A DNA stretch of 64,000 nucleotides from Alphaproteobacteria bacterium. GTDB lineage: Bacteria; Pseudomonadota; Alphaproteobacteria; MPNO01; UBA830. Location: the NCBI GenBank assembly GCA_965243135.1, contig OZ251539.1, positions 3,232,001 to 3,296,000 of the forward strand, read 5' to 3'. Position 1 is the first letter of the stretch; each line of letters begins with the position of its first letter. Shown piece by piece: positions 8,286-59,571 of this stretch. The translations under genes were made by a program, and so were the position numbers. The notes beneath the pieces are model-generated. The model was not told the origin of the DNA. It saw nothing but the letters and a program-made list of their open reading frames with translations, and did not search any database.

Positions 8286-8367
8286 TTCAATCGACAACCG
8301 GAACCGTGCGCCGCCGGGCCGCAACAGGGCCCCGCTGCGGGCGGATTTTTCGTGCGAAGGGCAGATC

Positions 8368-8841: not shown

Positions 8842-8884
8842 GGCGCGGTCGAGCGCGGCCGACCGCCTGGAGGAGAAAGACGGC

Positions 8885-9832: not shown

Positions 9833-9869
9833 CGCCCCGCGCAACCCGTTCCCGCCGCCGGCAGCCGGC

Positions 9870-10835: not shown

Positions 10836-11042
10836 GGCATGTTCTCCTGCATCGGTTGCCGAACAACATAGAGCCCGCGCCGGGAAGGGCAAATCACATT
10901 TTCGTCAACTGCCCCCAGTTGAACTTCCGGAAGCAAGCGTCGACCGGCTCACGCGTGCTTCCGCAGGAAGCGCAATGCCTAGCTGTCGGCCCCGCCGGCC
11001 GACGCGCCGATCAGCGTTGACGAGAATCTCCCATGGCGTGCT

Positions 11043-30926: not shown

Positions 30927-30967
30927 AATGCAATATGGAAGCAATCACTTCTCGGCGGGAGCAAGCC

Positions 30968-32167: not shown

Positions 32168-32243
32168 GGCACGTCCTCAAGCCCTACCTATCGCGACAGC
32201 GGCTCGCCTTGGCGTCGAAATTATCCCTCTATGGTATTATTGA
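32163..32243 (+). pseudogene. 3'-end stub of darT (DNA ADP-ribosyltransferase toxin)
   Basis: Frame ending at TGA 32243 reads '...ARLGVEIIPLWYY*', like the 'VE++P.WYY' end of DarT, 17 nt upstream of darG. Confidence 0.6.
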
Positions 32244-32260
32244 ACTGGGAGACGATAGAG

Positions 32261-33313: not shown

Positions 33314-34080
33314 TGACGGCTGATTCGAGCGAAACAGGCTTCGAAATCCTCATCGTCAAATCCTTGATCGACAAGGGCGGCCATGTCGTCAGCGATCCGA
33401 AGGATTGCGGCCGCGCCATCGACGTAGCCAAGCTCTTTGGCTACTCGGACGCGAAGCAGTCCGGGGCCGTCGAGACGTCCGGCATCGGAGCCGACAACTT
33501 GCAACGTATCCGACTCCTCCAACGCCTGCGCGATAAGGTCGACAAACGTGGCGTTGTCGACGTGCTCCGCAAGGGATGTAAGCGCGAACCTGCCTTCGAT
33601 GGAGTTGTTCCAGGGCGCGCCGACCTCCGGCAACGCGAAGGCGGAACCCCTGTTTGCCGCGAACGTCTTCAGCGTCACGCGGCAGCTCCGCCATTCGAGA
33701 GACGAAACCCGGCTCGCGCTTGACCTGGCACCGTTCGTCAACGGTCTGTCCATAGCCGCCTTCGAACTCAAGAACGGCCTGACCAAGCAAAAAATCGAAA
33801 ATGCCGTCGAACAATACCGGCGCGACTGCGACCCGAAGGAACCGTTGTTTCGCTTCGGTCATTGCGTCGTCCATTTCGCGGTGGACAATCAAGAGAGAAG
33901 GATGTGCACCCATCTGCGAGGCAAAGACTCGTGGTTTCTGCCGTTCAATATTGATTGAGATAGCGGCGCAGGAAACACGCCGAACCCGCATTGCCTTGAG
34001 CCGACTACTTGTAGAAGAAGGTTCTGCCAAAAAAAGCCTGACTGACATCCTTGAGAACTACGCCCAGATCGTCTCGGAGG
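33313..34080 (+). pseudogene. hsdR: Type I R-M restriction subunit HsdR, N-terminal remnant
   Basis: 'SETGFE', 'RGVVDVLRKG', 'NVFSVTRQLRHS...DL..FVNGL.I..FELKN.LTKQ...AVEQY', 'SWFLPFN', 'SLTDILENYAQIV'; frameshifts, helicase part absent. Confidence 0.9.
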
Positions 34081-35256: not shown

Positions 35257-36837
35257 TCATTCGTCCGCCGTCGGCTCGCGGCGTCCCGCGAGCTTGTTAC
35301 CTGTCTCGAAGTACCGTCCCGTCACGGCGAACTCCGCTTCCTCCGCATTTTCCTGCGTCCAGGCGCTCAAAGGATAGCCGTGCCACGGCGTCCTCAGGTC
35401 GAGTTCGGGCAAGCCCAGCGCTGTCCATTTCTCCCGCGCCGCCCGCATGAAGTCCTCGCGCGGCAACGAGACGGGCAGGTAGGGATGCTCGCGCACCGCG
35501 TTGATCAGGATCGCCGACGCCCCCCGCGCGTCCGGGTACGCGGAATCCGAAGGAGCGACCGAAGGATCGAGACGCGCCACCTTGCCGCGAATGATCTCCA
35601 TATCGCGATGGGGCTGCGTACTGTAGCTCAGCGCCCACAGCACCGCTTCGAGGGAATCGGGATCGACGTCCGAATCGACAGCGATGAAGATCTTGCCAAG
35701 CGACGCGTCGAATGCAGCAGCCGCGCGAAGCGCTTGCCAGGGCTGCCCGGGTTCCGGCCGGTCGAGCTGGATCACGAACAGCATGTTGCAGCTCGCCATT
35801 TCGTGACATGCGACCCTGACGACGGACGGGTTGTTGCAGGCGTCTCTCAGATGCCTCAGATAGATCGCATCGAACGCAGCCTTGCGCATCACCGTGCTTT
35901 CGCTGGGCGGAAATTCGCTGATGATGCCCTGGTAGACGGGATCGGCGCGGTGAGTGACGGCCGTCACCTCGAAGATCTTCTCCATCTTGCGCGGTCCCAG
36001 ATAACCGCTCGCCTCGCCGAACGGCGCCTCGGGCTCCAGCGTATCGGTGCGAATGACGCCTTCCATCACGATTTCGGCTTCGGCCGGCACCATGCAATCG
36101 AACGTCTCCGCCGGGACGACCGCGATCGGCTCGCCGTTGAGCGCGCCGGCGACGCCGTATTCTTCGACGCCGTAGGGGACCTTGCTCGCGGCCGCCAGAA
36201 GCAGCGCCGGCGGGCCGCCCAGGAATACCGCCGCTTCAAGATGCCGGCCCGCCCGGCGCGCCTTCTCCCACTGAATGGCAAGATGCTGCGTGGACACGTC
36301 GGTGGCGCAGCCCATGCGGTCGGGCGCCTTGATCATGCCGCGATAGATGCCGAGATTGTACGTACCGTCCTCCGGATCCCGCGTAATCCAGACGCCCGCA
36401 GTGAGAAACGGCGCCGGATCGAAGCCCGGCGTCGAAACCAGATGAGGAAACCGGTCGATCCCGTCGCCGAAGGCCGCGCCGGCGTGGACGAAGTCCTTCA
36501 CCGGAGCGCTGGACGCTCGCTCGGGCGGCAAGTGGCCGCTCTGCACGCTCGCCCATCGGTCGCCGATCCCGTCGGGCTTCACGCCGAGCGCAGCGGCGTA
36601 TATCGCGCGCGAAGCGCCAAGCGACCCGATTGCTACGGATGCATCGAATTCCCGTCCGCGCGAGTCGGTGACGTTCGTGAACCAGAACGCCTTGCGCCGT
36701 TCCTCGGGCAGGCCGCGAAACTGCAGCCGGACGAGCGGAACGAGTTCGGTGTCCTTGCTGACGCGTTCCCGAACCACATGCAGAAGATCGCGCGCCTGCA
36801 GCTCTTCCAGATACGCCCGCAGATTACGGTACGGCAT
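35257..36837 (-). CDS. UbiD family (prFMN-dependent) decarboxylase
   Basis: 'TRDPEDGTYNLGIYR', 'VPAEAEIVMEG', 'EAPFGEASGY', 'VDSDVDP....VLWAL'. Confidence 0.93.
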   Translation of the reverse strand: MPYRNLRAYLEELQARDLLHVVRERVSKDTELVPLVRLQFRGLPEERRKAFWFTNVTDSRGREFDASVAIGSLGASRAIYAAALGVKPDGIGDRWASVQSGHLPPERASSAPVKDFVHAGAAFGDGIDRFPHLVSTPGFDPAPFLTAGVWITRDPEDGTYNLGIYRGMIKAPDRMGCATDVSTQHLAIQWEKARRAGRHLEAAVFLGGPPALLLAAASKVPYGVEEYGVAGALNGEPIAVVPAETFDCMVPAEAEIVMEGVIRTDTLEPEAPFGEASGYLGPRKMEKIFEVTAVTHRADPVYQGIISEFPPSESTVMRKAAFDAIYLRHLRDACNNPSVVRVACHEMASCNMLFVIQLDRPEPGQPWQALRAAAAFDASLGKIFIAVDSDVDPDSLEAVLWALSYSTQPHRDMEIIRGKVARLDPSVAPSDSAYPDARGASAILINAVREHPYLPVSLPREDFMRAAREKWTALGLPELDLRTPWHGYPLSAWTQENAEEAEFAVTGRYFETGNKLAGRREPTADE

Positions 36838-38238: not shown

Positions 38239-38826
38239 TCATCCCTCCGCTGGAGGCTCGGGTTCGAGCACGAATCCCCCGATCGAGAACCGGCCGGCCC
38301 CCCAGTCGTCGGGGTCGCAGCGCACCGGCTCGACCTCGTGCTCGGTCTCGGGCGGGAACGCGACGAAGGCGTTGTGCGCCGGCCGGATCCGGACGGGGCC
38401 GGCGCCGGGCGGATGGAGCACCAGGTCGCCTCCCGCGAAGGCGCACGGACGGCGATGCAGGTAGTAGATGTACGCGATGCGGCGGTTGTCGCACCAACTC
38501 GGCGTGGTCTCTCCGACGTCGGAATGCCGGACATGGAAGTCCCCGTCGTGATGGCACGCCCAAGCGCTATAGAGGCCGGGCGCGGCGGACACGGCCACCC
38601 CCAGCTCCCGCGCCGTCCGCGGAAGCGCCGCGTGGACGCGAGGGAACCACCACTCCCTCTCCCGCGCGCTCAGCTCGGCGTCGAAGGCCGACCGGGTCAG
38701 GCGGTCGATGGTCCCGTCGCCGCTCACCCCTATCGTCCAATCGCCGGAGTACGCATTATCGAACAACGCCACGGCATCGGCGGCGGGCAGAAAGTCGGGA
38801 ATCAGCACATGCGATCTAGGCTTCAT
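38239..38826 (-). CDS. 2OG-Fe(II) oxygenase (prolyl-4-hydroxylase-like), copy A
   Basis: HxD 'HSD', 'RRIAYIYYL', 'FAGGDL', distal His 'HEVEPV', 2OG-binding 'RFSI'; RBS GGAGG. Confidence 0.9.
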   Translation of the reverse strand: MKPRSHVLIPDFLPAADAVALFDNAYSGDWTIGVSGDGTIDRLTRSAFDAELSAREREWWFPRVHAALPRTARELGVAVSAAPGLYSAWACHHDGDFHVRHSDVGETTPSWCDNRRIAYIYYLHRRPCAFAGGDLVLHPPGAGPVRIRPAHNAFVAFPPETEHEVEPVRCDPDDWGAGRFSIGGFVLEPEPPAEG

Positions 38827-38913: not shown

Positions 38914-39501
38914 TCATCCTTCCGCGGAAGGCTCGGGTTCGAGCACGAATCCCACGATCGAGAACCGGCCGGCCCCCCAGTCGTCGGGGTCGCAACGCAC
39001 CGGCTCGACCTCGTGTTCGGTTTCGGGCGGGAACGCGACGAAGGCGTTGTGCGCCGGCCGGATCCGGACGGGGTCGGCGCCGGGAGGATGGAGCACCAGG
39101 TCGCCTCCCGTGAAGGCGCGCGGCCGGCGATGCAGGTAGTAGACATACGCGATGCGGCGGTTGTCCCAGAAAGCCATCGCGGTCTCTCCGGCGTCGCGAT
39201 GCCGGACGTGGAGATCTCCGCTGTGATGGCACGCCCAGGCGGTAAAGAAGTCGGGCGCGGCGGATACGTCCACCCCCAGCTCCCGCGCTGTCCGCGGAAG
39301 CGCCGCGAGGACGCGAGGGAGCCACCATTCCCTCTCGCGCGCGCTCAGTTCGGCGTTGAAGACCGACCGGGACAGGCGGTCGATGATGCCGTTGCCGCTC
39401 GTCCCTATCGTCCAATCGCCGGAGTACGCATTGTCGAACAACGTTGCGGCATCGGCGGCGGGCAGGAAGTCGGGAATCAGCACATGCGATCTAGGCTTCA
39501 T
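38914..39501 (-). CDS. 2OG-Fe(II) oxygenase (prolyl-4-hydroxylase-like), copy B
   Basis: Same motifs (HRD...HEV...RFS); 195 aa, 30 substitutions relative to copy A by manual alignment. Confidence 0.9.
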   Translation of the reverse strand: MKPRSHVLIPDFLPAADAATLFDNAYSGDWTIGTSGNGIIDRLSRSVFNAELSAREREWWLPRVLAALPRTARELGVDVSAAPDFFTAWACHHSGDLHVRHRDAGETAMAFWDNRRIAYVYYLHRRPRAFTGGDLVLHPPGADPVRIRPAHNAFVAFPPETEHEVEPVRCDPDDWGAGRFSIVGFVLEPEPSAEG

Positions 39502-40800: not shown

Positions 40801-40941
40801 ATACCGGAACCGACGCATACGGGCGTACTGATCGCCGGCCCCAAGGCCGCGGGAAAGTCCCGGCTCGCGCTCGCGGAGGCCCTGGAGTCTTTCGGCGGGG
40901 CGACGATCATAAATTCGGACAGTATGCAGGTCTATCGCGAC
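40801..40941 (+). pseudogene. miaA: 5' fragment of tRNA dimethylallyltransferase MiaA
   Basis: 'VLIAGPKAAGKSRLALAEALESFGGATIINSDSMQVYRD' matches the MiaA N-terminus (GPTASGKS...DSMQVY); ends abruptly. Confidence 0.8.
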
Positions 40942-41174
40942 TCTCGGAGCGGCACCGTGGTGATTTCCGCGCGCGGAATGGCGACTCCCGACCGCATGGC
41001 GCCCATGCCTCCCGCGCGTTGCGCCGCCAACCGGTCGATCCCGAGTTTCCATGTGGCGATCGCCTGGAGCAGCGTGGATTTCCCGGCGTTGTTCGGTCCT
41101 GCGAGAACGACCGTATCCGCCAGCTCCTCCTCGCGAAAGCGTTTGAAGTTCTTGATGGAAACGCGCCGGATCAT
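40932..41174 (-). pseudogene. 5' fragment of an AAA/ABC ATPase
   Basis: 'MIRRVSIKNFKRF...LAGPNNAGKSTLLQAI'; only 80 aa, no Walker B. Confidence 0.8.
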
Positions 41175-47962: not shown

Positions 47963-49189
47963 TTATTCTCCAAAATACGCTGGGTCGCCATTCCGAAAAA
48001 GGGGATCTCCCAATCCAAAATATCCCTCCATCCACAAATCTCCAAGAATGGCGCCATTTTTGATTAATGCCTCTATGTTGCTCAAATCCGCCACGGGCTG
48101 CGTACGCGTATAGCCCGCTTCGTCACGCCATAGAACTCGAACCTCCTCCGCCCGAAGCGCATCCACGAATAACGGCGAATGCGTGGTGATAAGAAGCTGC
48201 GTATGCTCGCAGGCGGCGCGGCATTCCTCGGCCAATTCAAAAAGGAGACGAGGATGCAGAAAATTTTCAGGTTCTTCAATACCTATAAACGGCGGCGGAT
48301 CCAGATCGTACAACAGCACGAACAAAGTAAGCATCTTTAATGTGCCATCAGAGGCAAACCGTGCTAAAACAGGATTTCCAAATGGAGCATCCTTGATTTT
48401 CAACGACAATCGGCCGTCCGACATCGTCTCGGTCAATACCCTTTCTATGCGCGGCACGCGTCTTCGGAGCGTTTCGATTATCTTCTCGAGTCGCGTCGAG
48501 TGCCGCTCGCTCAGGCATTGTATGACATTGGCGAGGTTGTCTCCGGTGGCGCTAAGCCGCTCTTGCGGATCCGTTCCCTGTTGCCCTCGGACGTTGTCCG
48601 CAGAAAGACGTGAGACATGGCATCCCATGACGAAGTCACGCAGCGCCGCTACCCGCGGATGTTCCTGCAACTGGCCAAGTACATTGGCAGCCAGAAGATC
48701 GGGCGACTTAAGGAGAATTGTCCGACGTTCGTCTTCGACGCGTGGCTCGTCGCCGCCGGTCGATTCGCCTTCGCCGCCGCTGAAACGGAGGAAACGAAAT
48801 GGGCCGCCCCGACGGCCAAGCCTCCACGCCAACCATTCATGCGCGACTGTCGGAGAGCCGCCATCCTCGTCGATTTCCAAATGATACGTGATCAATCTTT
48901 CCCCAGGCCGCTCGCGGTATTTCATTTCGATGACGATCGGTCCTTGGGAGTCGCGGGTCCTTAACTCTTTGGCGCGGCCGCGGCGATTCCATGCGCTGTG
49001 CAGGCCGAATTGAAAGCACTCCGCGAGGAACGCAAAGACGTCGAACACCGTGGATTTACCGCTGCCGTTCGGGCCGATAAGCACCGTCATCGGGGTTAGA
49101 TCGCGAAATTCAACTTCCCGAAGCGCTCGGAAATTTCGGACCTTCAGACACTCCACTCGAGGAATTTTTTGACACGCCGATTCGCGCAT
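47963..49189 (-). CDS. AAA_21-like ABC ATPase
   Basis: 'VRNFRAL', Walker A 'GPNGSGKS', 'ASDGTL', '[10 protein letters not shown]', 'ITTHSP'; alternative TTG start at 49204. Confidence 0.92.
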
Positions 49190-49423
49190 GTCGATTTCTC
49201 CCAAGTGAAACTACAACTTATGGACCAAGGAAAAAAGTAATGATTTGCGGAAACGAATTGTCATCATATCTACCAATTCAACTCCGTAAATCACGCATAT
49301 CTACTTTCGTCGCTTGATTACGTTCGCCACCTTTCCTTCAAAAACTCTCGCAACAATTCTCCTGCCTCCTTCATGCGAGCGCATGCGGAATCGGCAATCC
49401 GCGCCGCCCGCCCGAACAAGCGC

Positions 49424-49931: not shown

Positions 49932-50414
49932 TCAAACCGGAAAAACCAGGCAGTTGTCGATCGTAACGCTGTCGTAGACGCACGTGCGCCGCTTCAGCAG
50001 CAGCGACTCCTCCGTTCTCTCGAACACGTCCCGGTACTTGCCCACCTGCTGCACCCGCGTCGGCTCCTCGACCAGCGTCTCGAAGAGCTGATAGTTGGCT
50101 TCCGCGCCGATCAGCGGCCCGTCGACGGAAAGAACGCGGGTGTTGGTCACCGAAAGCTGCAGGTAGCGCGGCGCGAACATCTCGGTGTTGAGGATCGCGT
50201 AGGCGCGATCTTTCAGCATCGCCTTCCCCTCGCAATAGATCAGTCCGAGCGGCAGGCCGGCCTCCTCGTTGTCTCGCGCGAGCACATGGTAGACGGCGTC
50301 GTCGGTGAAGAACCCGACCCAGCGGTCGAGGTCGAAGCGGTCGAGCGCCGCCGCGTAGTCCGCGTGAAATTCCTCGATCTCGAATCGGAGTTCGCGCCGT
50401 CCGTCCGCCGTCAA
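49932..50414 (-). CDS. Aromatic ring-hydroxylating oxygenase beta subunit (NagH/AndAd-like)
   Basis: TTG start overlapping the alpha stop; 'YAAALD..DLDRW..FFTDDA.Y....RDN...LP...IYCE...ML.DR', ends 'LVFPV'. Confidence 0.88.
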   Translation of the reverse strand: MTADGRRELRFEIEEFHADYAAALDRFDLDRWVGFFTDDAVYHVLARDNEEAGLPLGLIYCEGKAMLKDRAYAILNTEMFAPRYLQLSVTNTRVLSVDGPLIGAEANYQLFETLVEEPTRVQQVGKYRDVFERTEESLLLKRRTCVYDSVTIDNCLVFPV

Positions 50415-51658
50415 AGCTCCATCGCCTCCCGGTAGTACCGGTACATGCCGCGAATGGCGCGCTCCGTGATCATGGTGTCGAAGGGCTCGTCGTCCTCGCC
50501 CAGCATCGCGAGTCCCGCCGACGGCCGGGATCTCCGCACGCCTTCCTGCAGGAAAGCGAGCGCCTCGTTGTCCTCGATTCCGAGAAACCCGGCCGGCCCG
50601 AAGATGTTGTTCTGACGGAGCCGGTGTCGGATCATCTCGTCGTCGTCCTCCGCGCGTCCGAACACGGTCCAGATCATCATGAATTCGTTGGGACCGCGGG
50701 GCACCAGCAGCCGCGTGTTCAGAATGTTGGTCTGGCGCAACGCCGTGAGCGTCGGAAAGATCGTGAGAACGGACGCCGACCATCCGGAGTCGAACTCGCG
50801 CACGAAATCGAGAACCCGGGGATCGTTCAGTTCCATCTTCTCCTTGAACGCCAGCATGTCCCGGCGCTCCTCGCCCGATACGTCGGGCCGTCCCTCGGGC
50901 CGCCGCGTCAGCAGGCCGCCGTGGCGCCCCCGCGGATCCACGGGAATGCTGGTCTCGTTGCCGGTGACGAACAGGCCGAAGGTCGTGAGATAGGTGTGCA
51001 GCAACGTCGCGTGGTAGGGATCCTTGAGGTTTTCCTGATACAGCTTCCAGTTGCTGCGGACCAGGTTGCGATGAACGCCGAGGAGCTTCATTTCTCCGCC
51101 ATCGAACGTGGCGTCGAACTCGGTCAGGATGTCGGCCCCGAGATAATCCTCCAAGGGTTCGACGCCGTCGCTCGCGGTCGCGAATATCACGCCGCCGCGG
51201 CGCGTTACCACGTATCTGCGCAAGCCGTGCGCGGACATGTCGAAATCCTCCGGCGCGCCGCCCCTGCCCTTCACGCCGCGGCGAAACGGGATCGCCGCCA
51301 GATCGCCTCTGAGCGTGTACGTCCAGTTGTGATAGGGGCAGATGAAGCGCTCCGCGTTGCCGCGATAGGCGCGGCAGAACTCGACGCCGCGGTGGGCGCA
51401 GCGGTTCTCGAAAACGTTTATCTCGCCGTCTTCGTCCCGCGCGACGACCACCGGGTAGGGTCCGACGTAGGAGCGGAAATAGTCCCCTGGATTCGGCGCT
51501 TCGCAGTCGAGCCCGACGTAGTTCCAGTGGGGACCGAGAAAAATCCGTTCCTTTTCGCGCTCGTAGATCTCCGGATCGGTGTAGATCCAGTCCGGTATCC
51601 GGTTCCCGTCGCCCGGCCAGACCGGGCGCGCGCCTCCGCGCGTGACGACGCCGTCCAT
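50411..51658 (-). CDS. Rieske ring-hydroxylating oxygenase alpha subunit (salicylate-5-hydroxylase/anthranilate dioxygenase-like)
   Basis: Rieske 'CAHRG...CPYH'; mononuclear Fe site 'ENLKDPYHATLLH...ED'. Confidence 0.93.
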   Translation of the reverse strand: MDGVVTRGGARPVWPGDGNRIPDWIYTDPEIYEREKERIFLGPHWNYVGLDCEAPNPGDYFRSYVGPYPVVVARDEDGEINVFENRCAHRGVEFCRAYRGNAERFICPYHNWTYTLRGDLAAIPFRRGVKGRGGAPEDFDMSAHGLRRYVVTRRGGVIFATASDGVEPLEDYLGADILTEFDATFDGGEMKLLGVHRNLVRSNWKLYQENLKDPYHATLLHTYLTTFGLFVTGNETSIPVDPRGRHGGLLTRRPEGRPDVSGEERRDMLAFKEKMELNDPRVLDFVREFDSGWSASVLTIFPTLTALRQTNILNTRLLVPRGPNEFMMIWTVFGRAEDDDEMIRHRLRQNNIFGPAGFLGIEDNEALAFLQEGVRRSRPSAGLAMLGEDDEPFDTMITERAIRGMYRYYREAMEL

Positions 51659-51823
51659 CGATCCTCCGCAAGTTTCCTCGCCTTCCGCGCCGACGGGAGC
51701 ATATCACAATCGCCGGACGCTTCCCGGACGAGGCGCCGGGCGGGCGGCGGCTGTCGCGCCGCGAATTGATCGCGGAAACCGTTTCCGTCATAAACGCCGC
51801 AGCCAACCGACCGGACGGGGGAC

Positions 51824-52930
51824 ATGAAGCTCGGATTTTTCACGATGCCGGTGCACCGCATCGACCGCGACTACACGCAGGTGCTGCAGGAAGACCGGGA
51901 AGCGATCATACTCGCGGACCGTCTGGGATATTCGGAAGCCTATGTCGGCGAGCACGTTACGGACACCGCCGAGAGCATCACCAATTCGATGCTGTTCCAG
52001 GCGAGCCTGATTTCGGAAACGAAGCGGATCAAGCTGGGCACGGGCACCACCAACCTCTCCCATACCCATCCCGTGCTGGTCGCGGCGCAAGCCGCCATGC
52101 TCGATCACCTGCTCGAAGGACGTTTCCTCTTCGGCATCAGTCCCGGCGCCCTGGAATCGGACGCCGAGGCGCTCGGCATCCGCGGGATCGACCGGAACGC
52201 GATGTTCGCCGAAGCCATCGGCCATATCGTCGACATCTGGAAGGGCGAGCCGCCCTACGACCTCGAAGGAGAACGGTGGAAGATCACCACCCGCGAAACG
52301 ATTTACCCCGAAATCGGGCTCGGCGCGATCGCGAAGCCCTATCAGAAGCCGCACCCGCCCATCCTCGGCACCGTCGTGGCGCCGTTCTCGAAAGGGGTGA
52401 TCGAGATGGGCAAGAAGGGGTTTCTTCCGATCTCGGCCAACTTCCTGCTGGACAAATGGGTCAAGACCCATTGGACCAACTACGCGCAGGGCTGCCGGGA
52501 AGCGGGACGCGCCGCGCGAACGGAAGACTGGCGCGTCGCCCGTTCGATCTTCGTCAACGACGACCATGCGAAAGCCGTGGACTACGGCATGAAGAATCCG
52601 CGCAGCCCCTACCGGTTCTATTTCAGCCAGCTCTCCACCAAGCTCAAGCGGGGCAACCGCCACGCGGTCTTCAAGCCAGAGCGCGACTTTCCCGACGAAA
52701 AGCTCACCGTCGACTTCATCGTCGACAGCCTCGTCATCGCCGGCGACGTGAACAGCGTCGTCGACCAGATACTCGCTTTCCGGGAAGTGACCGGCGATTT
52801 CGGGACCCTGCTGTACGCCGGCAAGGACTGGGAGGACAAGGCGCTCGCCACCCGTTCCATGGAGTTGATGGCCGAGAAGGTCATGCCCGCCGTGAACGCC
52901 GCGATCCGGCAGCCGCAGGCAGCCGAATAG
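51824..52930 (+). CDS. LLM-class (luciferase-like) flavin-dependent monooxygenase
   Basis: 'ADRLGYSEAYVGEH', 'IKLGTG', 'LDHLLEGR..FGI.PG', 'SMELMAEKVMP'. Confidence 0.92.
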   Translation: MKLGFFTMPVHRIDRDYTQVLQEDREAIILADRLGYSEAYVGEHVTDTAESITNSMLFQASLISETKRIKLGTGTTNLSHTHPVLVAAQAAMLDHLLEGRFLFGISPGALESDAEALGIRGIDRNAMFAEAIGHIVDIWKGEPPYDLEGERWKITTRETIYPEIGLGAIAKPYQKPHPPILGTVVAPFSKGVIEMGKKGFLPISANFLLDKWVKTHWTNYAQGCREAGRAARTEDWRVARSIFVNDDHAKAVDYGMKNPRSPYRFYFSQLSTKLKRGNRHAVFKPERDFPDEKLTVDFIVDSLVIAGDVNSVVDQILAFREVTGDFGTLLYAGKDWEDKALATRSMELMAEKVMPAVNAAIRQPQAAE

Positions 52931-53060
52931 GCGCGGCCTCCTCCCGGCGCGGCGACGCCGGGCGGCGGCTTCGCCGACGAGCGGACGCGGGCGTGCCGAC
53001 GGGCGAAGCGGGCGCGCGTTTCCGGACGTCGCGCCTTGCCCCTCATCGAGAGGAATTGCG

Positions 53061-53864
53061 ATGATGAAATACGAAAGCATCCGTTACGAAACGGCGGAGG
53101 GCGTCGCGAAAATCGTCTTCGACCTCCCGCGATACGGCAACGCGCTGGACTTGACCGGCGTTCGCGAAACCCTTGACGCGCTGGTCCGCTCGGAGGCCGA
53201 CGACGCGGTCGGCGCCGTCATGTTCATCGGCTCAGGCAAGGCTTTCTGCTCGGGCTTCAATCTGAAGGAAATTCCGGAAGCGCGGGAGGAAATTCCCGGC
53301 CATTTCCGCGAACTCGCGATGTGGTGGCACCAGGTCTTTCACAAAGTGGTCCATCTCGGGAAACCGGTCTTTTCGGCGGTCAACGGGGTCGCGGCCGGTT
53401 CCGGCCTCGGCCTCGCCCTGTGCTCGGACATGGCGATCTGCACCGACGACGCCCGTTTCCTCTGCGCATGGCATTCGATCGGCCTCGCCAACGACGCGAC
53501 CACGAGCTATTCGCTGGCGAAGATCGTCGGCTTCCGCCGCGCCATGGAACTGATGATGACCAACCGGACGCTCGACGCGCGGGAAGCGCTCGAATGGCAG
53601 ATCGTCAACCGGGTCTACGAGCGGGGCGAATTCGAGAAAAACGCCTGGTCGATCGCGAAGGATCTCGCGGCGGGGCCGACGCACCTGCAAGCCATGGCGA
53701 GAGAAAGCTTTCACCAGGGCTGGCGGCGTTCGGTCGAGGAAGCGACGGAATGCGAGATCCGCAACGTCATGCGGTCGGTGGACGACCCTTTCTTCGGAAA
53801 GGCGCTCGAGCGTTTCCTGGACGGGAACTCCCGCAGCGACGCGCCGGTCGTGCGGCTGCCCTGA
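53061..53864 (+). CDS. fcbB: 4-chlorobenzoyl-CoA dehalogenase (crotonase fold)
   Basis: Colinear with Pseudomonas CBS3 FcbB as recalled: 'FCSGF', 'WWHQ' (His90), 'CAWHSIGLAND' (Trp137, Asp145 nucleophile), 'SYSLAKIVG.RRAMELM.TNRTL', 'PTHLQ.MA.E.FH.GW', 'EI.NV'. Confidence 0.92.
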   Translation: MMKYESIRYETAEGVAKIVFDLPRYGNALDLTGVRETLDALVRSEADDAVGAVMFIGSGKAFCSGFNLKEIPEAREEIPGHFRELAMWWHQVFHKVVHLGKPVFSAVNGVAAGSGLGLALCSDMAICTDDARFLCAWHSIGLANDATTSYSLAKIVGFRRAMELMMTNRTLDAREALEWQIVNRVYERGEFEKNAWSIAKDLAAGPTHLQAMARESFHQGWRRSVEEATECEIRNVMRSVDDPFFGKALERFLDGNSRSDAPVVRLP

Positions 53865-53883
53865 CCGGCGGACGGGCGCGGCA

Positions 53884-55209
53884 ATGTTCCGGAAGCGCGG
53901 ACGGCCCCTCCACATGGGCCGCTTCCCGATGGAGAAGATCAGGCGGGTCGACCGGCCGACGACCCTGATCACCGACGAAATCAAGCGCGTTCCCAAGCGC
54001 GCCGGCTTCTTCGTCCGCGCCTTTTTCGGCGATCTCGGCCCCAAGGCCGGAAAGGAAATCCGCAGATTCATCACCAAGAACCCGCTCAACGCGGCGATGG
54101 GACATCTGCACTGGACGCAGGTTCCCGTCCATCGCGGAGAGCCGTACGCCGACCCGGCGGAGCTGCCCGACGATCCCGAAGAGCTGGCGAGGCACCTCAA
54201 ATCCCTCTGCTACTTTCTCGACGCCGACATCGTCGGCATCTGCGAATGCCCGGAGTGGGCGTGGTACAGCCACGACATGGACGGAAAGCCCATAGACGCG
54301 AAGCACAAATACGCGATCGTCATCGTCGTCGACCAGCGCTGGGAAACCCTGGAAGCGTCGTCGGGAGACGACTGGGTTTCGGGCGCGCAGAGCTATCGAG
54401 CCTACCTGAAAGGGTCGACCATATCCGTGGTCGTCGCCGACTACATCCGCCGTTTGGGCCACGAGGCGCAGGCGCATTCCAACGCCGACGGCGACGTGCT
54501 GCAGATACCTCTGATGCTGCTCGCGGGTCTCGGGGAGATGAGCCGCATCGGCGAACTGGTCCTCAATCCCTTCGTCGGTCCGCGGCACAAGACCGCCGTC
54601 GTCACGACCAACCTTCCTCTCGCGGTCGACAAGCCGATCGATTTCGGGCTGCAGGATTTCTGCGCCAAGTGCATGAAATGCGCCCGCGAATGCCCGGCGC
54701 AGGCGATCCCGTTCGGCGGCAAGGTGCTCTACAACGGCTACGAGACCTGGAAGCCCGACGTCGAAAAATGCACGAAGTACCGGGTGACCAATCCCAAGGG
54801 TTCGTCCTGCGGCCGGTGCATGAAGATGTGCCCCTGGAACAAGGAGGGTTTGCTGCGGCACCGGCTCGCGATGTGGGCGGCCATCAGGTTGAAATGGTCG
54901 CGCCGCCTTTTGATCTGGCTGGACGACAAGATGGGATACGGCAGGCGCGATCCGGCGAACAAGTGGTGGTTCGACCTCGAAACGGCGAAGAAGAACGGGC
55001 GCGCCTTCGTCAGCGGGAAGGCGAGCGAGCGCGACCTCTCGCTCGACCGGGATACTTCCGGGGGCAACGACGGGATCGCGGTCTATCCCGTCGAGACTCT
55101 TCCGGAGGCCGATCGGAAGGAAGCCGTGCCTACCGACCGCCGAACCGGGTTGCGCGACACGAGGAATGCCGAGGCCGCCCTGCGGCGCGCGAAACAGGCG
55201 CGCAACTGA
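53884..55209 (+). CDS. rdhA: Cobalamin-dependent reductive dehalogenase, catabolic (non-respiratory) type
   Basis: 'GRFPME.I.RVD.PTT', 'AGLGEMSRIGE..LNPFVGPR.K..VVTT', two Fe-S motifs 'CAKCMKCARECP' and 'C...CGRCMKMCPWN', 'KWWFDLE'; no Tat signal, no rdhB. Confidence 0.92.
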   Translation: MFRKRGRPLHMGRFPMEKIRRVDRPTTLITDEIKRVPKRAGFFVRAFFGDLGPKAGKEIRRFITKNPLNAAMGHLHWTQVPVHRGEPYADPAELPDDPEELARHLKSLCYFLDADIVGICECPEWAWYSHDMDGKPIDAKHKYAIVIVVDQRWETLEASSGDDWVSGAQSYRAYLKGSTISVVVADYIRRLGHEAQAHSNADGDVLQIPLMLLAGLGEMSRIGELVLNPFVGPRHKTAVVTTNLPLAVDKPIDFGLQDFCAKCMKCARECPAQAIPFGGKVLYNGYETWKPDVEKCTKYRVTNPKGSSCGRCMKMCPWNKEGLLRHRLAMWAAIRLKWSRRLLIWLDDKMGYGRRDPANKWWFDLETAKKNGRAFVSGKASERDLSLDRDTSGGNDGIAVYPVETLPEADRKEAVPTDRRTGLRDTRNAEAALRRAKQARN

Positions 55210-55520
55210 AGCAACTTGACGTCCCGCCGCGCTGACGCGTTCTCCGCAGGAACGCCCCGGGCGCGTCCGCTTGTCGCCGCCGTCGGCAACTCCGCTCGCC
55301 GACGCCCGGTGCGCTTGCGCGCAACGAGACCGGGGATCGAGGCGTGCCGCCGGCGGCGCGAGGTCCGGGCGACAGGCTTTCCGTTCCGCATGAACCTCGC
55401 CGGACCGCCTCTCCGCCCAACAACTCTCCGCATGAGCCTTGATTTTCCGAGGATTTCCCAAAAAAATCCTTGTATTTTTCCAAAAAACTTGTCGTTTGCG
55501 TGAAAATGGCGGACTTCATC

Positions 55521-55754
55521 ATGGTCGAAGCCACGATCACCTTGAGAGGGCAAACGACGTTGCCGAAATCCGTCCGAAAGGCGCTCGGCGTCGGGGCAGG
55601 AGACCGCATACGTTATGTCATTGAAGACGGTCAGGTTCGCGTCTTGCCCGTTCGCCCGCTCGACCGGCTATTCGGCGCGTTGAACTACGACGGGCCGCTC
55701 GCAACGCTGGAGGATATGGAGCGCGCGATCGCCGAAGGCGCCGATGAAACATGA
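55521..55754 (+). CDS. AbrB/MazE/SpoVT-family antitoxin
   Basis: 'ATITLRGQTTLPKSVRKALGVGAGDRIRY'. Confidence 0.88.
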   Translation: MVEATITLRGQTTLPKSVRKALGVGAGDRIRYVIEDGQVRVLPVRPLDRLFGALNYDGPLATLEDMERAIAEGADET

Positions 55755-56368: not shown

Positions 56369-57391
56369 TCAGCCGGCCGAACCTGACAAGCGCTCCGCCC
56401 GATCGTCGACCTCGTCCGCGAGACGCGCCTTTTCCGCATCGTCGAGGAACGATGCGGCGACGGAGTTGCGCGCCAGCGCGACGACGTCCTCGATCGACAG
56501 ATCGAGCGCATCCTTCACGGCGATGTAGTTGTCCGCGACGTACCCCCCGAAATAAGCCGGATCGTCGGAGTTCACCGTCACCATCAGCCCCGCGTCCAGC
56601 ATCCGCTTGAGCGGATGGTCGCGCATGTCCGTCACCCCGCACAGCTTGAGATTGGACAATGGACAGACGGTCAACGGCACCTGCTCGTCCGCGAGGCGCC
56701 GAACCAGCGCCGGATCCTCCAGCGCCCGGTTGCCGTGATCGATCCGGGCGACCTGGAGCAGATCGAGCGCCTCGCGGACGTATTCCGGAGGGCCTTCCTC
56801 GCCGGCATGGGCGACGGTCAGGAATCCCGCCTCGCGCGCCTTCCTGAATACCCGCTCGAACTTCCGGGGCGGATGTCCCCGCTCGGTGGAGTCCAGGCCG
56901 ACCGCGGCAATCCGGTCGCGATAGGGCATCGCCTGCTCCAGGGTCCGGAACGCGTCCTCCTCGTCCAGGTGCCGAAGAAAGCACATGATCAGTCGCGAGG
57001 TAACGCCGGTCTCCTCCAAACCCGCATCCAAGCCGCGCCGAACGCCCTCGATCGCCGTCTCGAACGGGACCCCGCGCTCCGTGTGGCCCTGCGGATCGAA
57101 GAAAATCTCCGCGTGCGCGACGCCGTCGCGGCGCGCGCGCCGCAGATAGGCCGTCGTAAGGTCGCAGAAATCCTCTTCGCGCAGCAATACGCTCATGCCC
57201 TGGTAGTAGATGTCGAGAAACGACTGCAGGTTTTCGAAAGAGTAGGCGGCGCGGACCTCTTCGACCGAACCGAAGGGAAGTTCCACGCCGTTGCGGCGGG
57301 CAAGCTCGAACATGAGCTCCGGTTCCAGAGTGCCTTCGATGTGGACGTGCAGTTCGGTTTTCGGAAGTTTCCGTATGAAGTCGTCGGTCAT
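56369..57391 (-). CDS. Adenosine/adenine deaminase
   Basis: 'PKTELHVHIEGTLEP', 'AHAGEEGP', 'RIDHG', 'CPLSN', 'NSDDPAYF'. Confidence 0.95.
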   Translation of the reverse strand: MTDDFIRKLPKTELHVHIEGTLEPELMFELARRNGVELPFGSVEEVRAAYSFENLQSFLDIYYQGMSVLLREEDFCDLTTAYLRRARRDGVAHAEIFFDPQGHTERGVPFETAIEGVRRGLDAGLEETGVTSRLIMCFLRHLDEEDAFRTLEQAMPYRDRIAAVGLDSTERGHPPRKFERVFRKAREAGFLTVAHAGEEGPPEYVREALDLLQVARIDHGNRALEDPALVRRLADEQVPLTVCPLSNLKLCGVTDMRDHPLKRMLDAGLMVTVNSDDPAYFGGYVADNYIAVKDALDLSIEDVVALARNSVAASFLDDAEKARLADEVDDRAERLSGSAG

Positions 57392-57473
57392 CTCAAGCCT
57401 TTCCTCGGTGCGCAAACGGATCTGGAATGCTACGCTCGACGGCATCGCCAACCAAGTAAGGGACCTCGCGGAG

Positions 57474-59105
57474 ATGGGCAACGAAAAATCGTTCGATTAC
57501 GTGATCGTCGGCGCAGGGTCGGCAGGTTGCACGCTCGCGAACCGGCTGACGGAAGATCCGGAGATCCGCGTGCTCGTGATCGAGGCCGGCGGCAGCGACC
57601 GACATCCCTACATCACGGTTCCCCTCGGCTGGGGAAAGATTCTGTTCGAACGGCTGTTCGACTGGGGCTACTTCACGCAGCCCGAAGCCCGGTTCGACGG
57701 GCGCGAGGTCGAATGCGCGCGCGGCAAGGTTCTGGGGGGATCTTCGTCCATCAACGCCATGGGCTACGTGCGCGGCCATCGGGAAGACTACGATCGCTGG
57801 AGCCGCAACGGCTGCAAGGGCTGGTCCTACGCCGAATGCCTGCCCTATTTCCGGAAATCGGAGGACTGGGAAAAGGGCGGCGACGACTATCGCGGCGCCG
57901 GCGGCCCTCTGACCACGATCGAAAACAAGTACCCCGACCCGCTCCTGCAGGCGTGGCTGGACGCCGGAGAGGCGGCGGGCTACGGAACCACTCCCGACTT
58001 CAACGGCGCCAGGAACGAGGGACTCGGAGTCTTCCAGTCCACCATACGCAACGGTCGCCGATGCAGCGCCGCGGTGGCCTATCTGCGCCCGGCCATGCGG
58101 AGGCCGAACCTCTCCGTCGTCACGAAGGCGCTCGCCGGCAAGGTCGTTCTGGAGGGCTCGCGCGCCGTCGGCGTCGAATACTCCGTCTCCGGAGGCGCTC
58201 CCGAAGTCGCGCGCGCGGACCGCGAGGTCATCCTGTCCGGCGGAGTGATCAACTCGCCGCAATTGTTGATGCTGTCGGGGATCGGAGACGGAGACCGCCT
58301 GAAGGCGCACGGGATCGAGGCGGCCGTCCACGCTCCCGGCGTGGGCCGGAACCTGCAGGATCACCTGTCCGTGGGCGTCGAATACGAGAGAATCGGCGAC
58401 GGGCCGTTCGTCGGCCTGCTGCGCTACGACAGGATCGCTCTCGCGATGATGCGGGCGTACTTCTTCGGCACCGGCTTCGCCACCGAAATGCCGGGCCCCC
58501 TGACCGGCTTTCTGCATTCGAAGGACGGACTGGCGCAGCCCGACATCCAGCTCCTCGCCCGCTTCATACCGCCGGAGTCGCAACCGTGGTTCCCGGGCGC
58601 GCGCCGCAAGCCCACGGACGCCTTCATGGTCCGGCCCGTCCTGCTGCACCCGGCGAGCCGCGGCGAGCTGACGCTGAAGTCCGCGGACCCGGCCGACCAC
58701 ATGCTGATCCATCAGAACTTCCTGGCCGAGCCGGAAGACCGGCAGACGCTGCGCGACGGCATCGAGATGGTGCGCCGCATCGCTTCGCAGAAACCGCTCG
58801 ACGGATTTCGCGGACCGGAGATCCAGCCGGGGAACGAACCCGTCGACGACTTCATCAAGCGGACCGCATGGACCGCCCATCACCCGCTCGGCACCTGCAA
58901 GATGGGCCCCGACGACGACCCGCTCGCCGTCGTCGATTCGGAACTGCGCGTTCGGGGCGCCGAAAACCTGCGCGTCGTCGACGGATCCGTGTTTCCCGAC
59001 ATGATCGGCGGCAACATCAATGCGCCGATCATCATGTTCGCGGAGCGCATCTCCGACCTGCTTCGCGGACGAAAACCGCTCGCCCCCGCGAAGGTCGCGG
59101 CCTGA
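57474..59105 (+). CDS. GMC oxidoreductase (choline dehydrogenase/4-pyridoxate dehydrogenase-like)
   Basis: 'IVGAGSAGC', 'RGKVLGGSSSINAM', 'GRNLQDH', 'HHPLGTCKMG', 'GNINAP'. Confidence 0.93.
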   Translation: MGNEKSFDYVIVGAGSAGCTLANRLTEDPEIRVLVIEAGGSDRHPYITVPLGWGKILFERLFDWGYFTQPEARFDGREVECARGKVLGGSSSINAMGYVRGHREDYDRWSRNGCKGWSYAECLPYFRKSEDWEKGGDDYRGAGGPLTTIENKYPDPLLQAWLDAGEAAGYGTTPDFNGARNEGLGVFQSTIRNGRRCSAAVAYLRPAMRRPNLSVVTKALAGKVVLEGSRAVGVEYSVSGGAPEVARADREVILSGGVINSPQLLMLSGIGDGDRLKAHGIEAAVHAPGVGRNLQDHLSVGVEYERIGDGPFVGLLRYDRIALAMMRAYFFGTGFATEMPGPLTGFLHSKDGLAQPDIQLLARFIPPESQPWFPGARRKPTDAFMVRPVLLHPASRGELTLKSADPADHMLIHQNFLAEPEDRQTLRDGIEMVRRIASQKPLDGFRGPEIQPGNEPVDDFIKRTAWTAHHPLGTCKMGPDDDPLAVVDSELRVRGAENLRVVDGSVFPDMIGGNINAPIIMFAERISDLLRGRKPLAPAKVAA

Positions 59106-59115
59106 GGAGAACGCG

Positions 59116-59571
59116 ATGAACAGCGTCATCGAGGTCGAACGCGTCGATCACGTCGGCATACGGGTTTCGGACGGGGACCGCGCGGTCCGGTTCTACGAAT
59201 TGCTGGGATTCGAAGTCGTCGAGCGCGTCTCTTTCGATCCGGTGATCATCATCCGCAATCCGAGGAACGTGGAGATCAATCTGATCGCGAACGCGGCGCC
59301 CGAACACGACGGCAGCAACGTTCTCATGGACGCCGGCGCCAAATACGCCGGCATGACCCATCTGGCGCTGCGGGTCTCTTCGATCTCCGAAACGATGGAT
59401 ATCCTCAAGCGGGAAGGCATCGAGATCACCCAGGGTCCGGTCGCGTTCGGCCGCGACGGGCACGTATCGCTGTTCGTCCGGGATCCGGATCGCAACGTCA
59501 TCGAACTGCGCGCCCGCGCGGAAAACCTTGCGGAAATCGAAGGACTCCGGCAATATGAAAACTTGAATTAG
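59116..59571 (+). CDS. VOC (glyoxalase/bleomycin resistance) family protein
   Basis: 'DHVGIRV', 'THLALRV', 'FVRDPDRNVIEL'. Confidence 0.9.
   Translation: MNSVIEVERVDHVGIRVSDGDRAVRFYELLGFEVVERVSFDPVIIIRNPRNVEINLIANAAPEHDGSNVLMDAGAKYAGMTHLALRVSSISETMDILKREGIEITQGPVAFGRDGHVSLFVRDPDRNVIELRARAENLAEIEGLRQYENLN

Follow-up and report, generated by a model that had tools for sequence, protein, structure and literature searches.

The locus described here raises the question of why a hydrolytic dehalogenase of benzoyl-CoA thioesters is encoded directly upstream of a reductive, cobalamin-dependent one, and whether the two serve the same compounds. It lies in a window (the whole stretch of DNA that was analysed, 64,000 nt) taken from contig OZ251539.1, positions 3,232,001-3,296,000 of the forward strand, of the assembly GCA_965243135.1 of an Alphaproteobacteria bacterium, labelled G000 below. 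The reading under test was an initial annotation that a model had made from the sequence alone, without database searches, and that had fcbB stopping 19 nt ahead of a gene for a 441-aa RdhA. The coordinates and the gap were confirmed, as were both open reading frames:

53061..53864, + strand: FcbB-type 4-halobenzoyl-CoA dehalogenase of the crotonase superfamily, 267 aa (PF00378; 1NZY)
53865..53883, + strand: 19-nt intergenic spacer between fcbB and rdhA, read from the sequence
53884..55209, + strand: short (one-core-domain) cytoplasmic NpRdhA-type cobalamin/[4Fe-4S] reductive dehalogenase, 441 aa (TIGR02486; 4RAS)

The third-position GC of the two frames (0.83 for fcbB and 0.85 for rdhA) is high, as is usual for coding DNA of this genome. 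A ribosome-binding site, GAGAGGAA, is found upstream of the fcbB ATG, and a consensus scan found no terminator-like site in the gap. Across 18 orthologous loci, the spacer measures at most 31 nt in 14; it is 137 nt in the other four, which are near-identical.

FcbB enzymes exchange the para-halogen of benzoyl-CoA for a hydroxyl group, and their gene is usually found in an fcbABC operon. In the enzyme of strain CBS3, Asp145 is the nucleophile and His90 the general base, together with Trp137, while the backbone amides of Phe64 and Gly114 polarise the thioester. The product of the window gene has the crotonase fold (PF00378, E 4.8e-43) and aligns over its full length with the 4-chlorobenzoyl-CoA dehalogenase structures 1NZY/1JXZ (E 3.6e-98; residues 4-267 against 2-266), with the best other crotonase far behind (E 1.1e-32). 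It was claimed initially that the protein keeps His90, Trp137 and Asp145; the numbering proved identical to that of 1NZY, and all three residues are invariant in 54 homologues, as are F66 (the F64 equivalent), W89 and G113. Position 114 is Ser in the window protein and in the clade consensus but Gly in 1NZY; this position acts through its backbone NH, so the Ser side chain may or may not matter. The protein also has Ala146 for Thr146 and Asn67 for Tyr65. A tblastn search of a plasmid collection with FcbB gave no match at E <=1e-40, and a phylum-wide sample of 400 other genomes gave none at E <=1e-70; since at most six candidates were scored per genome, the latter result shows only that FcbB is rare and carries no information on its contexts.

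The second protein scored 188.8 bits against TIGR02486, above the cut-off of 160.35, and matched NpRdhA (4RAS) at E 3.3e-160, with the alignment confined to residues 5-432 against 252-686. A Fer4_7 match is present, and C260, C263, C266, C270, C296, C309, C312 and C316 are invariant in 40 sequences. In NpRdhA, Tyr426 and Lys488 are described as the proton-donor dyad, and Ser422 and Arg552 as the residues that bind the substrate hydroxyl (PMC7565698). Their equivalents S170, Y174, K236 and R300 (NpRdhA S422, Y426, K488 and R552) are invariant in the same number of sequences, and the hydroxyl-binding residues are kept in every RdhA inspected. An identity as QueG was ruled out (TIGR00276 gave 29.9 bits against a cut-off of 200, and 5D08 gave E 0.0034), and the grouping with QueG-like proteins that the initial annotation had named as refuting its case was not seen. 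A respiratory PceA-type identity was ruled out as well, since 4UQU matched at E 1.1e-30 only and the protein has neither a leader nor an RdhB partner. A 95-codon frame after rdhA was considered as an RdhB and rejected: it is Arg-rich, not hydrophobic and of low coding signal. The absence of a Tat signal, an RdhB anchor and a fused reductase was thus borne out, as there is no twin-arginine leader and the N-terminus aligns inside NpRdhA.

The assignment of the protein to the catabolic NpRdhA/BhbA type was upheld in part. The catalytic and hydroxyl-binding residues and the cytoplasmic nature agree with it, but the form is not the standard one, in that the vestigial N-terminal domain of NpRdhA is missing. 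This domain is described as a mark of catabolic RdhAs that mimics the dimer interface (PMC10463259). With the end of fcbB only 19 nt upstream, rdhA has no space for it. A short open frame like that of the window RdhA was found at 50 of 75 uncut RdhA loci, and the one-domain form makes up 51 of the 77 sequences in the RdhA tree. The supposed hallmark of catabolic RdhAs is thus dispensable in a large clade, and its loss raises the question of whether short RdhAs dimerise like the respiratory ones.

The following features lie around the pair:

51824..52930, + strand: luciferase-like flavin monooxygenase (LLM), 368 aa, the first gene of a conserved LLM-(MarR)-FcbB-RdhA module (PF00296, E 6e-37)
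55448..55472, + strand: terminator-like hairpin with a T-run, a possible operon end, 239 nt past the rdhA stop (consensus scan)
57291..59105, + strand: GMC-family oxidoreductase, a syntenic accessory gene (PF00732, PF05199)
59020..59571, + strand: glyoxalase/VOC-fold protein after the GMC gene (PF00903 from residue 41 on; the gene probably starts downstream of 59020)

The closest solved structure to the LLM protein is 3,6-diketocamphane 1,6-monooxygenase (4UWM, E 1.6e-25, full length), and an orthologue with 82-87% identity stands upstream of FcbB in 9 of 80 RdhA-centred loci. Two frames of 432 and 430 aa over 51766-53080 were rejected as genes, being Arg/Pro-rich and without a family match; the real gene is the LLM, in another frame. 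LLM homologues near long RdhAs (loci L072 and L073) were likewise rejected as an association, as they lie about 3 kb off on the other strand, surrounded by unrelated genes. Downstream of the pair, the terminator scan returned 4 sites against 4.7 from shuffles, so the hairpin is weak evidence for an operon end. Orthologues of the GMC protein come straight after RdhA in two loci (L001 and L005; 84-85% identity) and further downstream in three others (L003, L009 and L011; 72-76%), and in all five they are followed by orthologues of the VOC-fold protein (68-71%). In the window, genes for an antitoxin and for an adenosine deaminase lie between rdhA and the GMC gene.

A search for fcbB-rdhA adjacency, as the initial annotation had proposed, revealed an arrangement that is conserved in one clade. 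RdhA is immediately preceded by FcbB in 10 of 80 RdhA-centred species loci, and the two are adjacent in 10 of 41 related genomes; about a dozen uncultured relatives have kept the pair. All 10 linked loci form one RdhA clade together with the window (100% support), while the flanks differ between genomes (MarR, AEC permease, GMC). Among such close relatives, the conservation may simply reflect inherited synteny.

A second architecture was found in metagenomes. Among 80 FcbB-centred metagenome loci, 25 have at least 3.5 kb downstream, and 14 of these carry an NpRdhA-type RdhA: seven a short one adjacent to FcbB, and seven a long one after an FcbA-type ligase. The other roomy loci lack an RdhA and have either FcbB with a ligase (6) or neither ligase nor RdhA (5). 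The seven contigs with a long RdhA share the order MarR-FcbB-FcbA ligase-long RdhA, in which the ligase resembles CBAL (3CW8, E 2.5e-118) and lies between fcbB and rdhA with reading frames that overlap or abut. The two linked architectures fall into separate clades in the trees of both proteins, and neither contains a thioesterase. Some of the metagenome loci are copies of MAG loci, with identical rows, so these linkage counts are not independent; the placement of the ligase-linked long RdhAs relative to the short clade is poorly supported (SH-aLRT 42), and therefore no claim is made about an ancestral form or an ancestral linkage. Elsewhere the association is looser. In a sister family, f2, fcbB and rdhA are 266 to 541 kb apart; one genome (G006) keeps LLM-MarR-FcbB-AEC without RdhA; and other clades of short RdhAs include MarR-RdhA units that lack FcbB. 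The MarR proteins of families f1 and f2 are only 19% identical and were not taken as evidence of a shared ancestral regulator. The initial annotation could not recall the FcbB-RdhA arrangement as characterised, and a literature search found no description of the pairing.

It was claimed initially that neither an fcbA ligase nor an fcbC thioesterase is adjacent, which proved correct: the ORFs scanned over the 64-kb window included neither an AMP-binding ligase nor a 4HBT thioesterase, and all five 4HBT matches in the genome lie outside it. FcbB is thus not encoded here with FcbA and FcbC. A search of the rest of the genome, also suggested initially, located an FcbA-like ligase at G000:C1:4631087-4632646, 1.35 Mb from fcbB (3CW8, E 1.8e-111). 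Such a ligase is present in 14 of 15 FcbB-positive relatives and also in 8 or 9 genomes that lack FcbB. Further on in metabolism, 4-hydroxybenzoyl-CoA reductase takes the product of FcbB as its substrate. One hcrA gene for this enzyme scored above the cut-off in G000 (1104 bits), about 1.85 Mb from fcbB, and benzoate-CoA ligase, BoxB and BoxC of the box pathway are encoded as well; the ligase, the reductase and the box pathway are all at unlinked sites. In family f2, an hcrCAB-(hydrolase)-fcbB cluster ends with the FcbB gene (TIGR03194, 1131 bits, cut-off 994; TIGR03195, 418 bits, cut-off 405), and the metagenome locus L142 shows the same linkage, although the reductase is found in 30 of 41 genomes of the order and is common with or without FcbB. 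Since the reductase and the box pathway are encoded, a thioesterase may not be needed in G000, as judged from the gene content. The second architecture, the f2 cluster and the unlinked ligase, reductase and box pathway are all new relative to the initial annotation.

As far as sequence comparison can tell, FcbB and RdhA are well-founded members or near-members of the families to which they were first assigned. The 19-nt pairing kept in relatives, taken together with a second, unrelated operon that holds the same two enzyme types, suggests that they probably work together on halogenated benzoic acids. More specifically, we favour, tentatively and with slightly less than an even chance of being right, that fcbB and rdhA form a co-transcribed dehalogenation unit for these acids that acts on or near CoA thioesters. 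The unlinked FcbA-type ligase would activate the halobenzoic acid. FcbB would then exchange the para halogen for a hydroxyl group, with Asp145 as the nucleophile and His90 activating the hydrolytic water, via a Meisenheimer intermediate. The short cobalamin/[4Fe-4S] RdhA would reductively strip the halogen or halogens ortho to the new hydroxyl, with the thioester or the free acid as its substrate, and 4-hydroxybenzoyl-CoA would be passed through 4-hydroxybenzoyl-CoA reductase to the benzoyl-CoA (box) pathway. This route builds on the family identities, the catalytic residues, the conserved linkage, the second architecture and the finding of the ligase and downstream genes in the genome; the activities of the two enzymes, their order of action, their substrate and electron donor, and their co-transcription are predicted from these. 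The phenol-hydroxyl-binding residues kept in RdhA fit the series proposed initially, in which FcbB makes the 4-hydroxyl group and RdhA then removes the ortho halogens, and that interpretation was thus supported in part. Against the favoured route, both linked architectures lack a thioesterase, the NpRdhA-type enzymes known to us act on free phenols and acids only, and we know of no natural 3,4-dihalobenzoates or 3,4,5-trihalobenzoates that are abundant compounds. The Ser114 of FcbB, where 1NZY has Gly, and the fact that the linkage is not universal were counted against it too. Among the sequencing runs listed as containing the sequence, none was an RNA run. Runs labelled sponge metagenome contain near-identical DNA, which hints at natural organobromine turnover.

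Other explanations of the pair have to be weighed against this route. It is very improbable that the FcbB-like enzyme is not a dehalogenase in vivo and acts on another para leaving group, or has another crotonase activity, in which case its place beside RdhA may be historical and not functional. NCBIfam has no model naming FcbB and its top matches are generic crotonase models, all under their cut-offs, while public sources label the relatives enoyl-CoA hydratase or PaaG. Environmental relatives make up 494 clusters at E <=1e-40, although 4-halobenzoates are not, to our knowledge, common natural products, and the differences from 1NZY at Ser114, Ala146 and Asn67 point in the same direction. However, the full-length similarity to the characterised enzyme far exceeds that to any other crotonase; the nucleophile, the base and the Trp are invariant; and FcbB is linked repeatedly to an FcbA-type ligase (in 21 of 40 loci with room downstream), to 4-hydroxybenzoyl-CoA reductase and to another dehalogenase. 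A dehalogenating FcbB could instead share a purely regulatory bond with RdhA, which is unlikely, though the likeliest of the competing explanations: FcbB would act on 4-halobenzoyl-CoA and RdhA on 3-halo- or 3,5-dihalo-4-hydroxybenzoate or halophenols, the two being co-regulated only since both yield the 4-hydroxybenzoyl skeleton for further degradation by the cell. Both known enzyme types do end at 4-hydroxybenzoate or 4-hydroxybenzoyl-CoA, as family knowledge and the NpRdhA substrates described in PMC7565698 indicate. No thioesterase joins the two steps, each gene occurs without the other, and the MarR-RdhA units lacking FcbB fit as well. Nevertheless, the pairing recurs in two separate clades, one of which has the FcbA ligase tightly packed between the two genes, and this exceeds what co-regulation needs.

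The two enzymes might also act in the reverse order, which we regard as quite improbable; RdhA would remove the ortho halogen of 2,4-dihalobenzoyl-CoA before FcbB hydrolyses the 4-halogen. A CoA-level, NADPH-dependent version of such a route for 2,4-dichlorobenzoate was reportedly described by Romanov and Hausinger in 1996. We know of no gene assigned to its reductive enzyme, and a literature search for a 2,4-dichlorobenzoyl-CoA reductase found nothing relevant. The order itself has a precedent, as reductive dechlorination of 2,4-dichlorobenzoate to 4-chlorobenzoate, followed by the hydrolytic step, is known (PMC3809935, citing van den Tweel et al. 1987), and the set of ligase, FcbB and RdhA without a thioesterase fits an all-CoA route. 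Moreover, the position of NpRdhA K307, a basic residue paired with the free carboxylate in one described pose, is hydrophobic in all FcbB-linked RdhAs. This feature is, however, common to 58 of the 59 short forms, the majority of them without a link to FcbB, and all these RdhAs keep the Ser/Lys/Arg set for a phenolic hydroxyl ortho to the halogen, whereas 2,4-dihalobenzoyl-CoA has no such hydroxyl.

The coupling of the two genes in two architectures gives a concrete pathway context for an RdhA beside a CoA-dependent hydrolytic dehalogenase, and suggests full dehalogenation of polyhalogenated benzoates at the CoA level before 4-hydroxybenzoyl-CoA reductase. It also supplies candidate genes for a combined reductive and hydrolytic route that has been known since the 1980s, but from physiological work only. 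A stronger proposal, which appears distinctly unlikely at present, is that the FcbB-linked RdhAs, both the short and the ligase-linked long ones, are cobalamin reductive dehalogenases of aryl-CoA thioesters, with 3-halo-4-hydroxybenzoyl-CoA and 2,4-dihalobenzoyl-CoA as candidate substrates. If this were true, they would be the first CoA-ester-specific RdhAs and candidates for the enzyme that carries out the reductive dechlorination in the 2,4-dichlorobenzoate pathway, and would belong to a fully CoA-bound aerobic dehalogenation route ending in 4-hydroxybenzoyl-CoA reductase.

Compared with known systems, the window FcbB has the length and fold of the enzyme of Pseudomonas sp. CBS3 (1NZY, 1JXZ) and keeps the F64 equivalent, W89, H90, G113, W137 and D145. 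In contrast to the fcbABC operon of that strain, the window gene has no adjacent ligase or thioesterase and is flanked by the LLM monooxygenase gene and rdhA; the FcbA-type ligase is also present in G000, but unlinked. The CBS3 pathway uses the FcbC thioesterase, whereas in G000 the likely sink is 4-hydroxybenzoyl-CoA reductase. With regard to the HcrCAB/HbaBCD clusters, the f2 orthologue of FcbB lies in the same gene string as hcrCAB, whereas the two are unlinked in the family of the window.

The window RdhA shares with NpRdhA (Nitratireductor pacificus pht-3B; 4RAS, 6ZXU) the Fe-S motifs and S422, Y426, K488, R552, F290, F291, F310 and N452 (NpRdhA numbering); both are cytoplasmic and have no RdhB and no fused reductase. 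NpRdhA carries a vestigial duplicate of the cobalamin domain of about 250 residues that the window protein lacks, and the pocket differs by the changes A419G, M423Y, P311I and K307I. [quoted passage not shown] The self-sufficient catabolic enzymes BhbA and JtRdhA belong to the same RdhA branch, and their described substrates are ortho-halophenolic, for example 3,5-dibromo-4-hydroxybenzoate (PMC10463259); they have a C-terminal reductase domain and a vestigial domain, and the 441-aa window protein has neither. A physiological precedent is the degradation of 2,4-dichlorobenzoate by Alcaligenes denitrificans NTB-1 and by coryneform strains, in which a single benzoate skeleton undergoes both a reductive and an FcbB-type hydrolytic dehalogenation (PMC3809935), as is proposed for the present pair. 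That pathway is known at the physiological and enzymatic level only, and its order of steps is opposite to that of the route favoured here.

The gene order around fcbB and rdhA was derived from third-position GC and family scans. The window lies at positions 3232001-3296000 of contig C1 of its genome, G000 (6.1 Mb, a single contig, ~65% GC), and the following features were placed:

~49932-50400, minus strand: Rieske oxygenase small subunit, of a divergent pair of Rieske oxygenase genes
50411-51658, minus strand: Rieske oxygenase large subunit, of the same divergent pair
51824-52930, plus strand: luciferase-like monooxygenase (LLM)
53061-53864, plus strand: crotonase-family gene (fcbB)
19 nt: spacer between fcbB and rdhA
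53884-55209, plus strand: RdhA gene
within 55448-55754, downstream of rdhA and after a hairpin: PrlF/MazE-type antitoxin gene
after the antitoxin gene, minus strand: adenosine deaminase gene
57291-59105, plus strand: GMC oxidoreductase gene
after the GMC gene: glyoxalase-fold gene

The initial annotation had correctly placed the end of fcbB 19 nt before a gene for a 441-aa RdhA. Two long frames, 51766-53064 (plus strand) and 51788-53080 (minus strand), were rejected as genes. The closest structure to the LLM is a type II Baeyer-Villiger monooxygenase. In the stretch 55448-55754, an A/T-rich terminator-like hairpin precedes the antitoxin gene; the ORF after the latter gave no family match. Together with the adenosine deaminase gene, this stretch lies between rdhA and the two genes for the GMC and glyoxalase proteins; in the related loci L001 and L005, these two are directly 3' of rdhA. 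The remaining window holds housekeeping genes (rpoD, dnaG, carAB, uvrB, uvrC, moeA) and a few lower-GC islands. The lower-GC stretches 30935-33958 and 47963-49204 encode a Fic/DOC-MarR fusion, a Macro-domain protein, an HsdR N-terminal fragment and an AAA_21/AAA_15 ATPase; together with an 80-aa AAA_15 fragment at 40932-41174, they are probably defence or mobile islands. Tandem paralogous 2OG-Fe(II) oxygenase genes, each of 195 aa, lie at 38239-38826 and 38914-39501 on the minus strand.

FcbB (267 aa) aligned end to end with the structures of Pseudomonas 4-chlorobenzoyl-CoA dehalogenase (E 3.6e-98), with all other crotonases at 1e-32 or worse; none of the NCBIfam models names FcbB. The catalytic His90, Trp137 and Asp145 noted initially are numbered identically in 1NZY, and an alignment of 54 FcbB homologues showed F66 (Phe64 of 1NZY), W89, H90, G113, W137 and D145 to be invariant.

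RdhA passed the RdhA family model (188.8 bits against a cut-off of 160.35) and matched NpRdhA at E 3.3e-160, covering residues 252-686 only. Because the E values were merely 0.0034 for QueG and 1e-30 for PceA, the grouping with QueG that would have spoken against a dehalogenase was not found. The protein has no Tat leader or fused reductase and no RdhB-like gene, as first described. PMC7565698 assigns S422, Y426, K488 and R552 of NpRdhA to catalysis and phenolic-OH binding; the equivalent S170, Y174, K236 and R300 are invariant in 40 relatives. RdhA relatives were collected in 80 species-level loci, of which five were cut and set aside. Upstream of the core, 50 of the 75 uncut loci have only a short open frame, and 25 encode long forms. 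In a tree of 77 cores (these 75, the window RdhA and a second, long RdhA of G000), all 51 short RdhAs fell on one side of a single branch (SH-aLRT 99%). The second RdhA of G000 is of the NpRdhA type (730 aa; C1:5645627-5646931, L091:8869-11061) and adjoins a fumarylacetoacetase-fold gene and a ketopantoate-reductase-like gene.

A search for the adjacency, as proposed with the first description, found it to be conserved. Of the 80 RdhA-centred loci, 10 have an FcbB orthologue (66-78% identity) immediately before RdhA (one, L005, cut inside FcbB), and none was found in the other 70; the LLM gene precedes FcbB in nine. These ten and the window form one clade of the RdhA tree (100% support). Of 41 genomes from the window's order, 15 carry an FcbB orthologue (E 1e-100 or better), and in 10 of the 15, all of the window's family, it abuts a short RdhA; in G001, a contig break falls between the two. 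Fourteen of 18 orthologous loci have a spacer of at most 31 nt; in the other four, which are near-identical, it measures 137 nt. The flanking genes differ between loci. In most relatives, a MarR gene separates LLM from FcbB and RdhA is followed by an AEC-family permease; the window and L001 have neither. GMC and glyoxalase genes come next, either immediately or beyond an insertion. In G006, which is 77% complete, the order is LLM-MarR-FcbB-AEC without RdhA, and therefore RdhA is a gain or loss within the module. This locus (L090, G006:C2:703000-721000; 4809-11350, minus strand) continues with GMC and glyoxalase genes and has merely ~340 nt at the expected place of RdhA. Other loci (L006, L019, L027, L029-L037) have a MarR gene (39-52% identity to the MarR of the window's family) before a short RdhA, without FcbB. 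It looks as if MarR-RdhA were an older unit, with FcbB later inserted or lost. In L016 (6749-12923) and L021, from Defluviicoccus-like relatives in a sister short-RdhA clade, an amidohydrolase_2 gene lies upstream and RidA, EamA transporter, family III CoA-transferase and crotonase genes lie 3' of RdhA, a different CoA-linked context.

A second architecture was found in 80 FcbB-centred metagenome loci, of which 40 had at least 1.5 kb and 25 at least 3.5 kb downstream of FcbB; several of these rows are identical to MAG rows, which qualifies the counts. Of the 40, eight have a short RdhA no more than 200 nt after FcbB, and 21 have an AMP-ligase gene as the next gene. NpRdhA-type RdhAs are present in 14 of the 25: seven are short forms adjoining FcbB, and seven belong to a MarR-FcbB-ligase-long RdhA string whose frames abut or overlap, with a periplasmic binding protein next. 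Six of the 25 have the ligase without RdhA and five have neither. The ligase is a homologue of FcbA/CBAL (3CW8, E 2.5e-118; next family 1e-65). In L132 (13630-14718, minus strand) and L129 (8484-9575, minus strand), a gene for a single-subunit Rieske oxygenase is convergent with this operon, and L129 also has TRAP transporter genes beside it. The ligase-linked long RdhAs group together with 100% support; apart from them, the FcbB-linked short RdhAs make up another clade (100%), which lies deep within the unlinked short forms. In the FcbB tree, the two RdhA-linked groups are likewise separate clades (87% and 98%), with a ligase-only and a reductase-linked clade between them. Since support for the deep branching order is 42, two gains and a single old linkage with later losses are indistinguishable.

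In the sister family (G033, G036, G039), FcbB and the short RdhA are 266 to 541 kb apart or on different contigs. There it is the last gene of a 4-hydroxybenzoyl-CoA reductase string (alpha 1131 bits, cut-off 994.55; beta 417.7, cut-off 404.55; gamma 240.6, slightly below its cut-off of 257.8), often with an alpha/beta hydrolase gene; metagenome contig L142 has the same order. This reductase acts on precisely the compound that FcbB produces. G000 itself has one alpha subunit above the cut-off (1104.5 bits, C1:5131482-5133719), a benzoate-CoA ligase family gene adjoining boxB and boxC near 4.01 Mb, and an FcbA-like ligase at C1:4631087-4632646 (3CW8, E 1.8e-111; next family 7e-55). FcbA-like ligases occur in 14 of the 15 FcbB-positive genomes and the reductase in 30 of the 41. 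These co-occurrences are permissive, not specific, because FcbB-negative genomes also carry the reductase or the ligase (the latter in eight or nine). The large-subunit model TIGR03194 (xanthine-dehydrogenase/CODH family) gave 43 matches in G000 at E 1e-50 or better, one above cut-off (examples are C1:5131482-5133719 and C1:1065678-1067942); so many molybdenum hydroxylase paralogues are unusual. The FcbA-like ligase gene is divergent from a UbiD-family decarboxylase gene (C1:4631087-4634478, L185:9064-12479); another UbiD-family gene lies in the window (35257-36837, minus strand).

The most economical reading of these sequences is a CoA-level route in which a ligase would activate the acid, FcbB would exchange the para halogen for OH, RdhA would remove the halogen ortho to this OH, and 4-hydroxybenzoyl-CoA would be dehydroxylated and enter the box pathway. 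The action in series proposed in the initial annotation thus stays the favoured reading in amended form: a ligase is encoded elsewhere in the genome, and a thioesterase may be dispensable. The five matches to 4HBT thioesterases in G000 all lie away from fcbB-rdhA, the ligase, the reductase and the box genes. The retained OH-binding residues of RdhA favour the order FcbB, then RdhA. In one non-productive pose described for NpRdhA, the free carboxylate is paired with the basic residue K307. At the equivalent position, 24 of 26 unlinked long RdhAs have Lys or Arg, all seven ligase-linked long ones have Phe, and 58 of 59 short ones have Ile or Val. A non-basic residue would fit a substrate whose carboxylate is not free, a hint to be taken with caution, as it is also found in short forms not linked to FcbB.

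Set against this series are rivals. In the reverse order, the reductive step would precede the hydrolytic one, on 2,4-dihalobenzoyl-CoA; the known reductive-then-hydrolytic route runs at the CoA level. The sequence of a reductive and then a hydrolytic step is known physiologically, according to PMC3809935. The two enzymes might also act in parallel, as independent dehalogenases converging on the 4-hydroxybenzoyl skeleton, or the FcbB-like enzyme might serve another role.

Near-identical DNA of the locus was found in sponge metagenome-labelled runs of one study (0.42 to 0.77 of sampled words) and in runs of other coded studies; no RNA run was among the listed sequencing runs matching this DNA. 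The arrangement, initially thought uncharacterised, was not described in the full-text literature covered, which includes few subscription journals; the publications found were reviews or surveys treating each enzyme separately.

Compared with 1NZY, FcbB has Ser rather than Gly at position 114. According to PMC10463259, a vestigial second copy of the cobalamin-binding domain, mimicking the dimer interface of the respiratory enzymes, distinguishes catabolic RdhAs. The window RdhA lacks this copy. The two enzyme families were known before; the new elements are their recurrent coupling, the CoA-pathway context and the one-domain RdhA.
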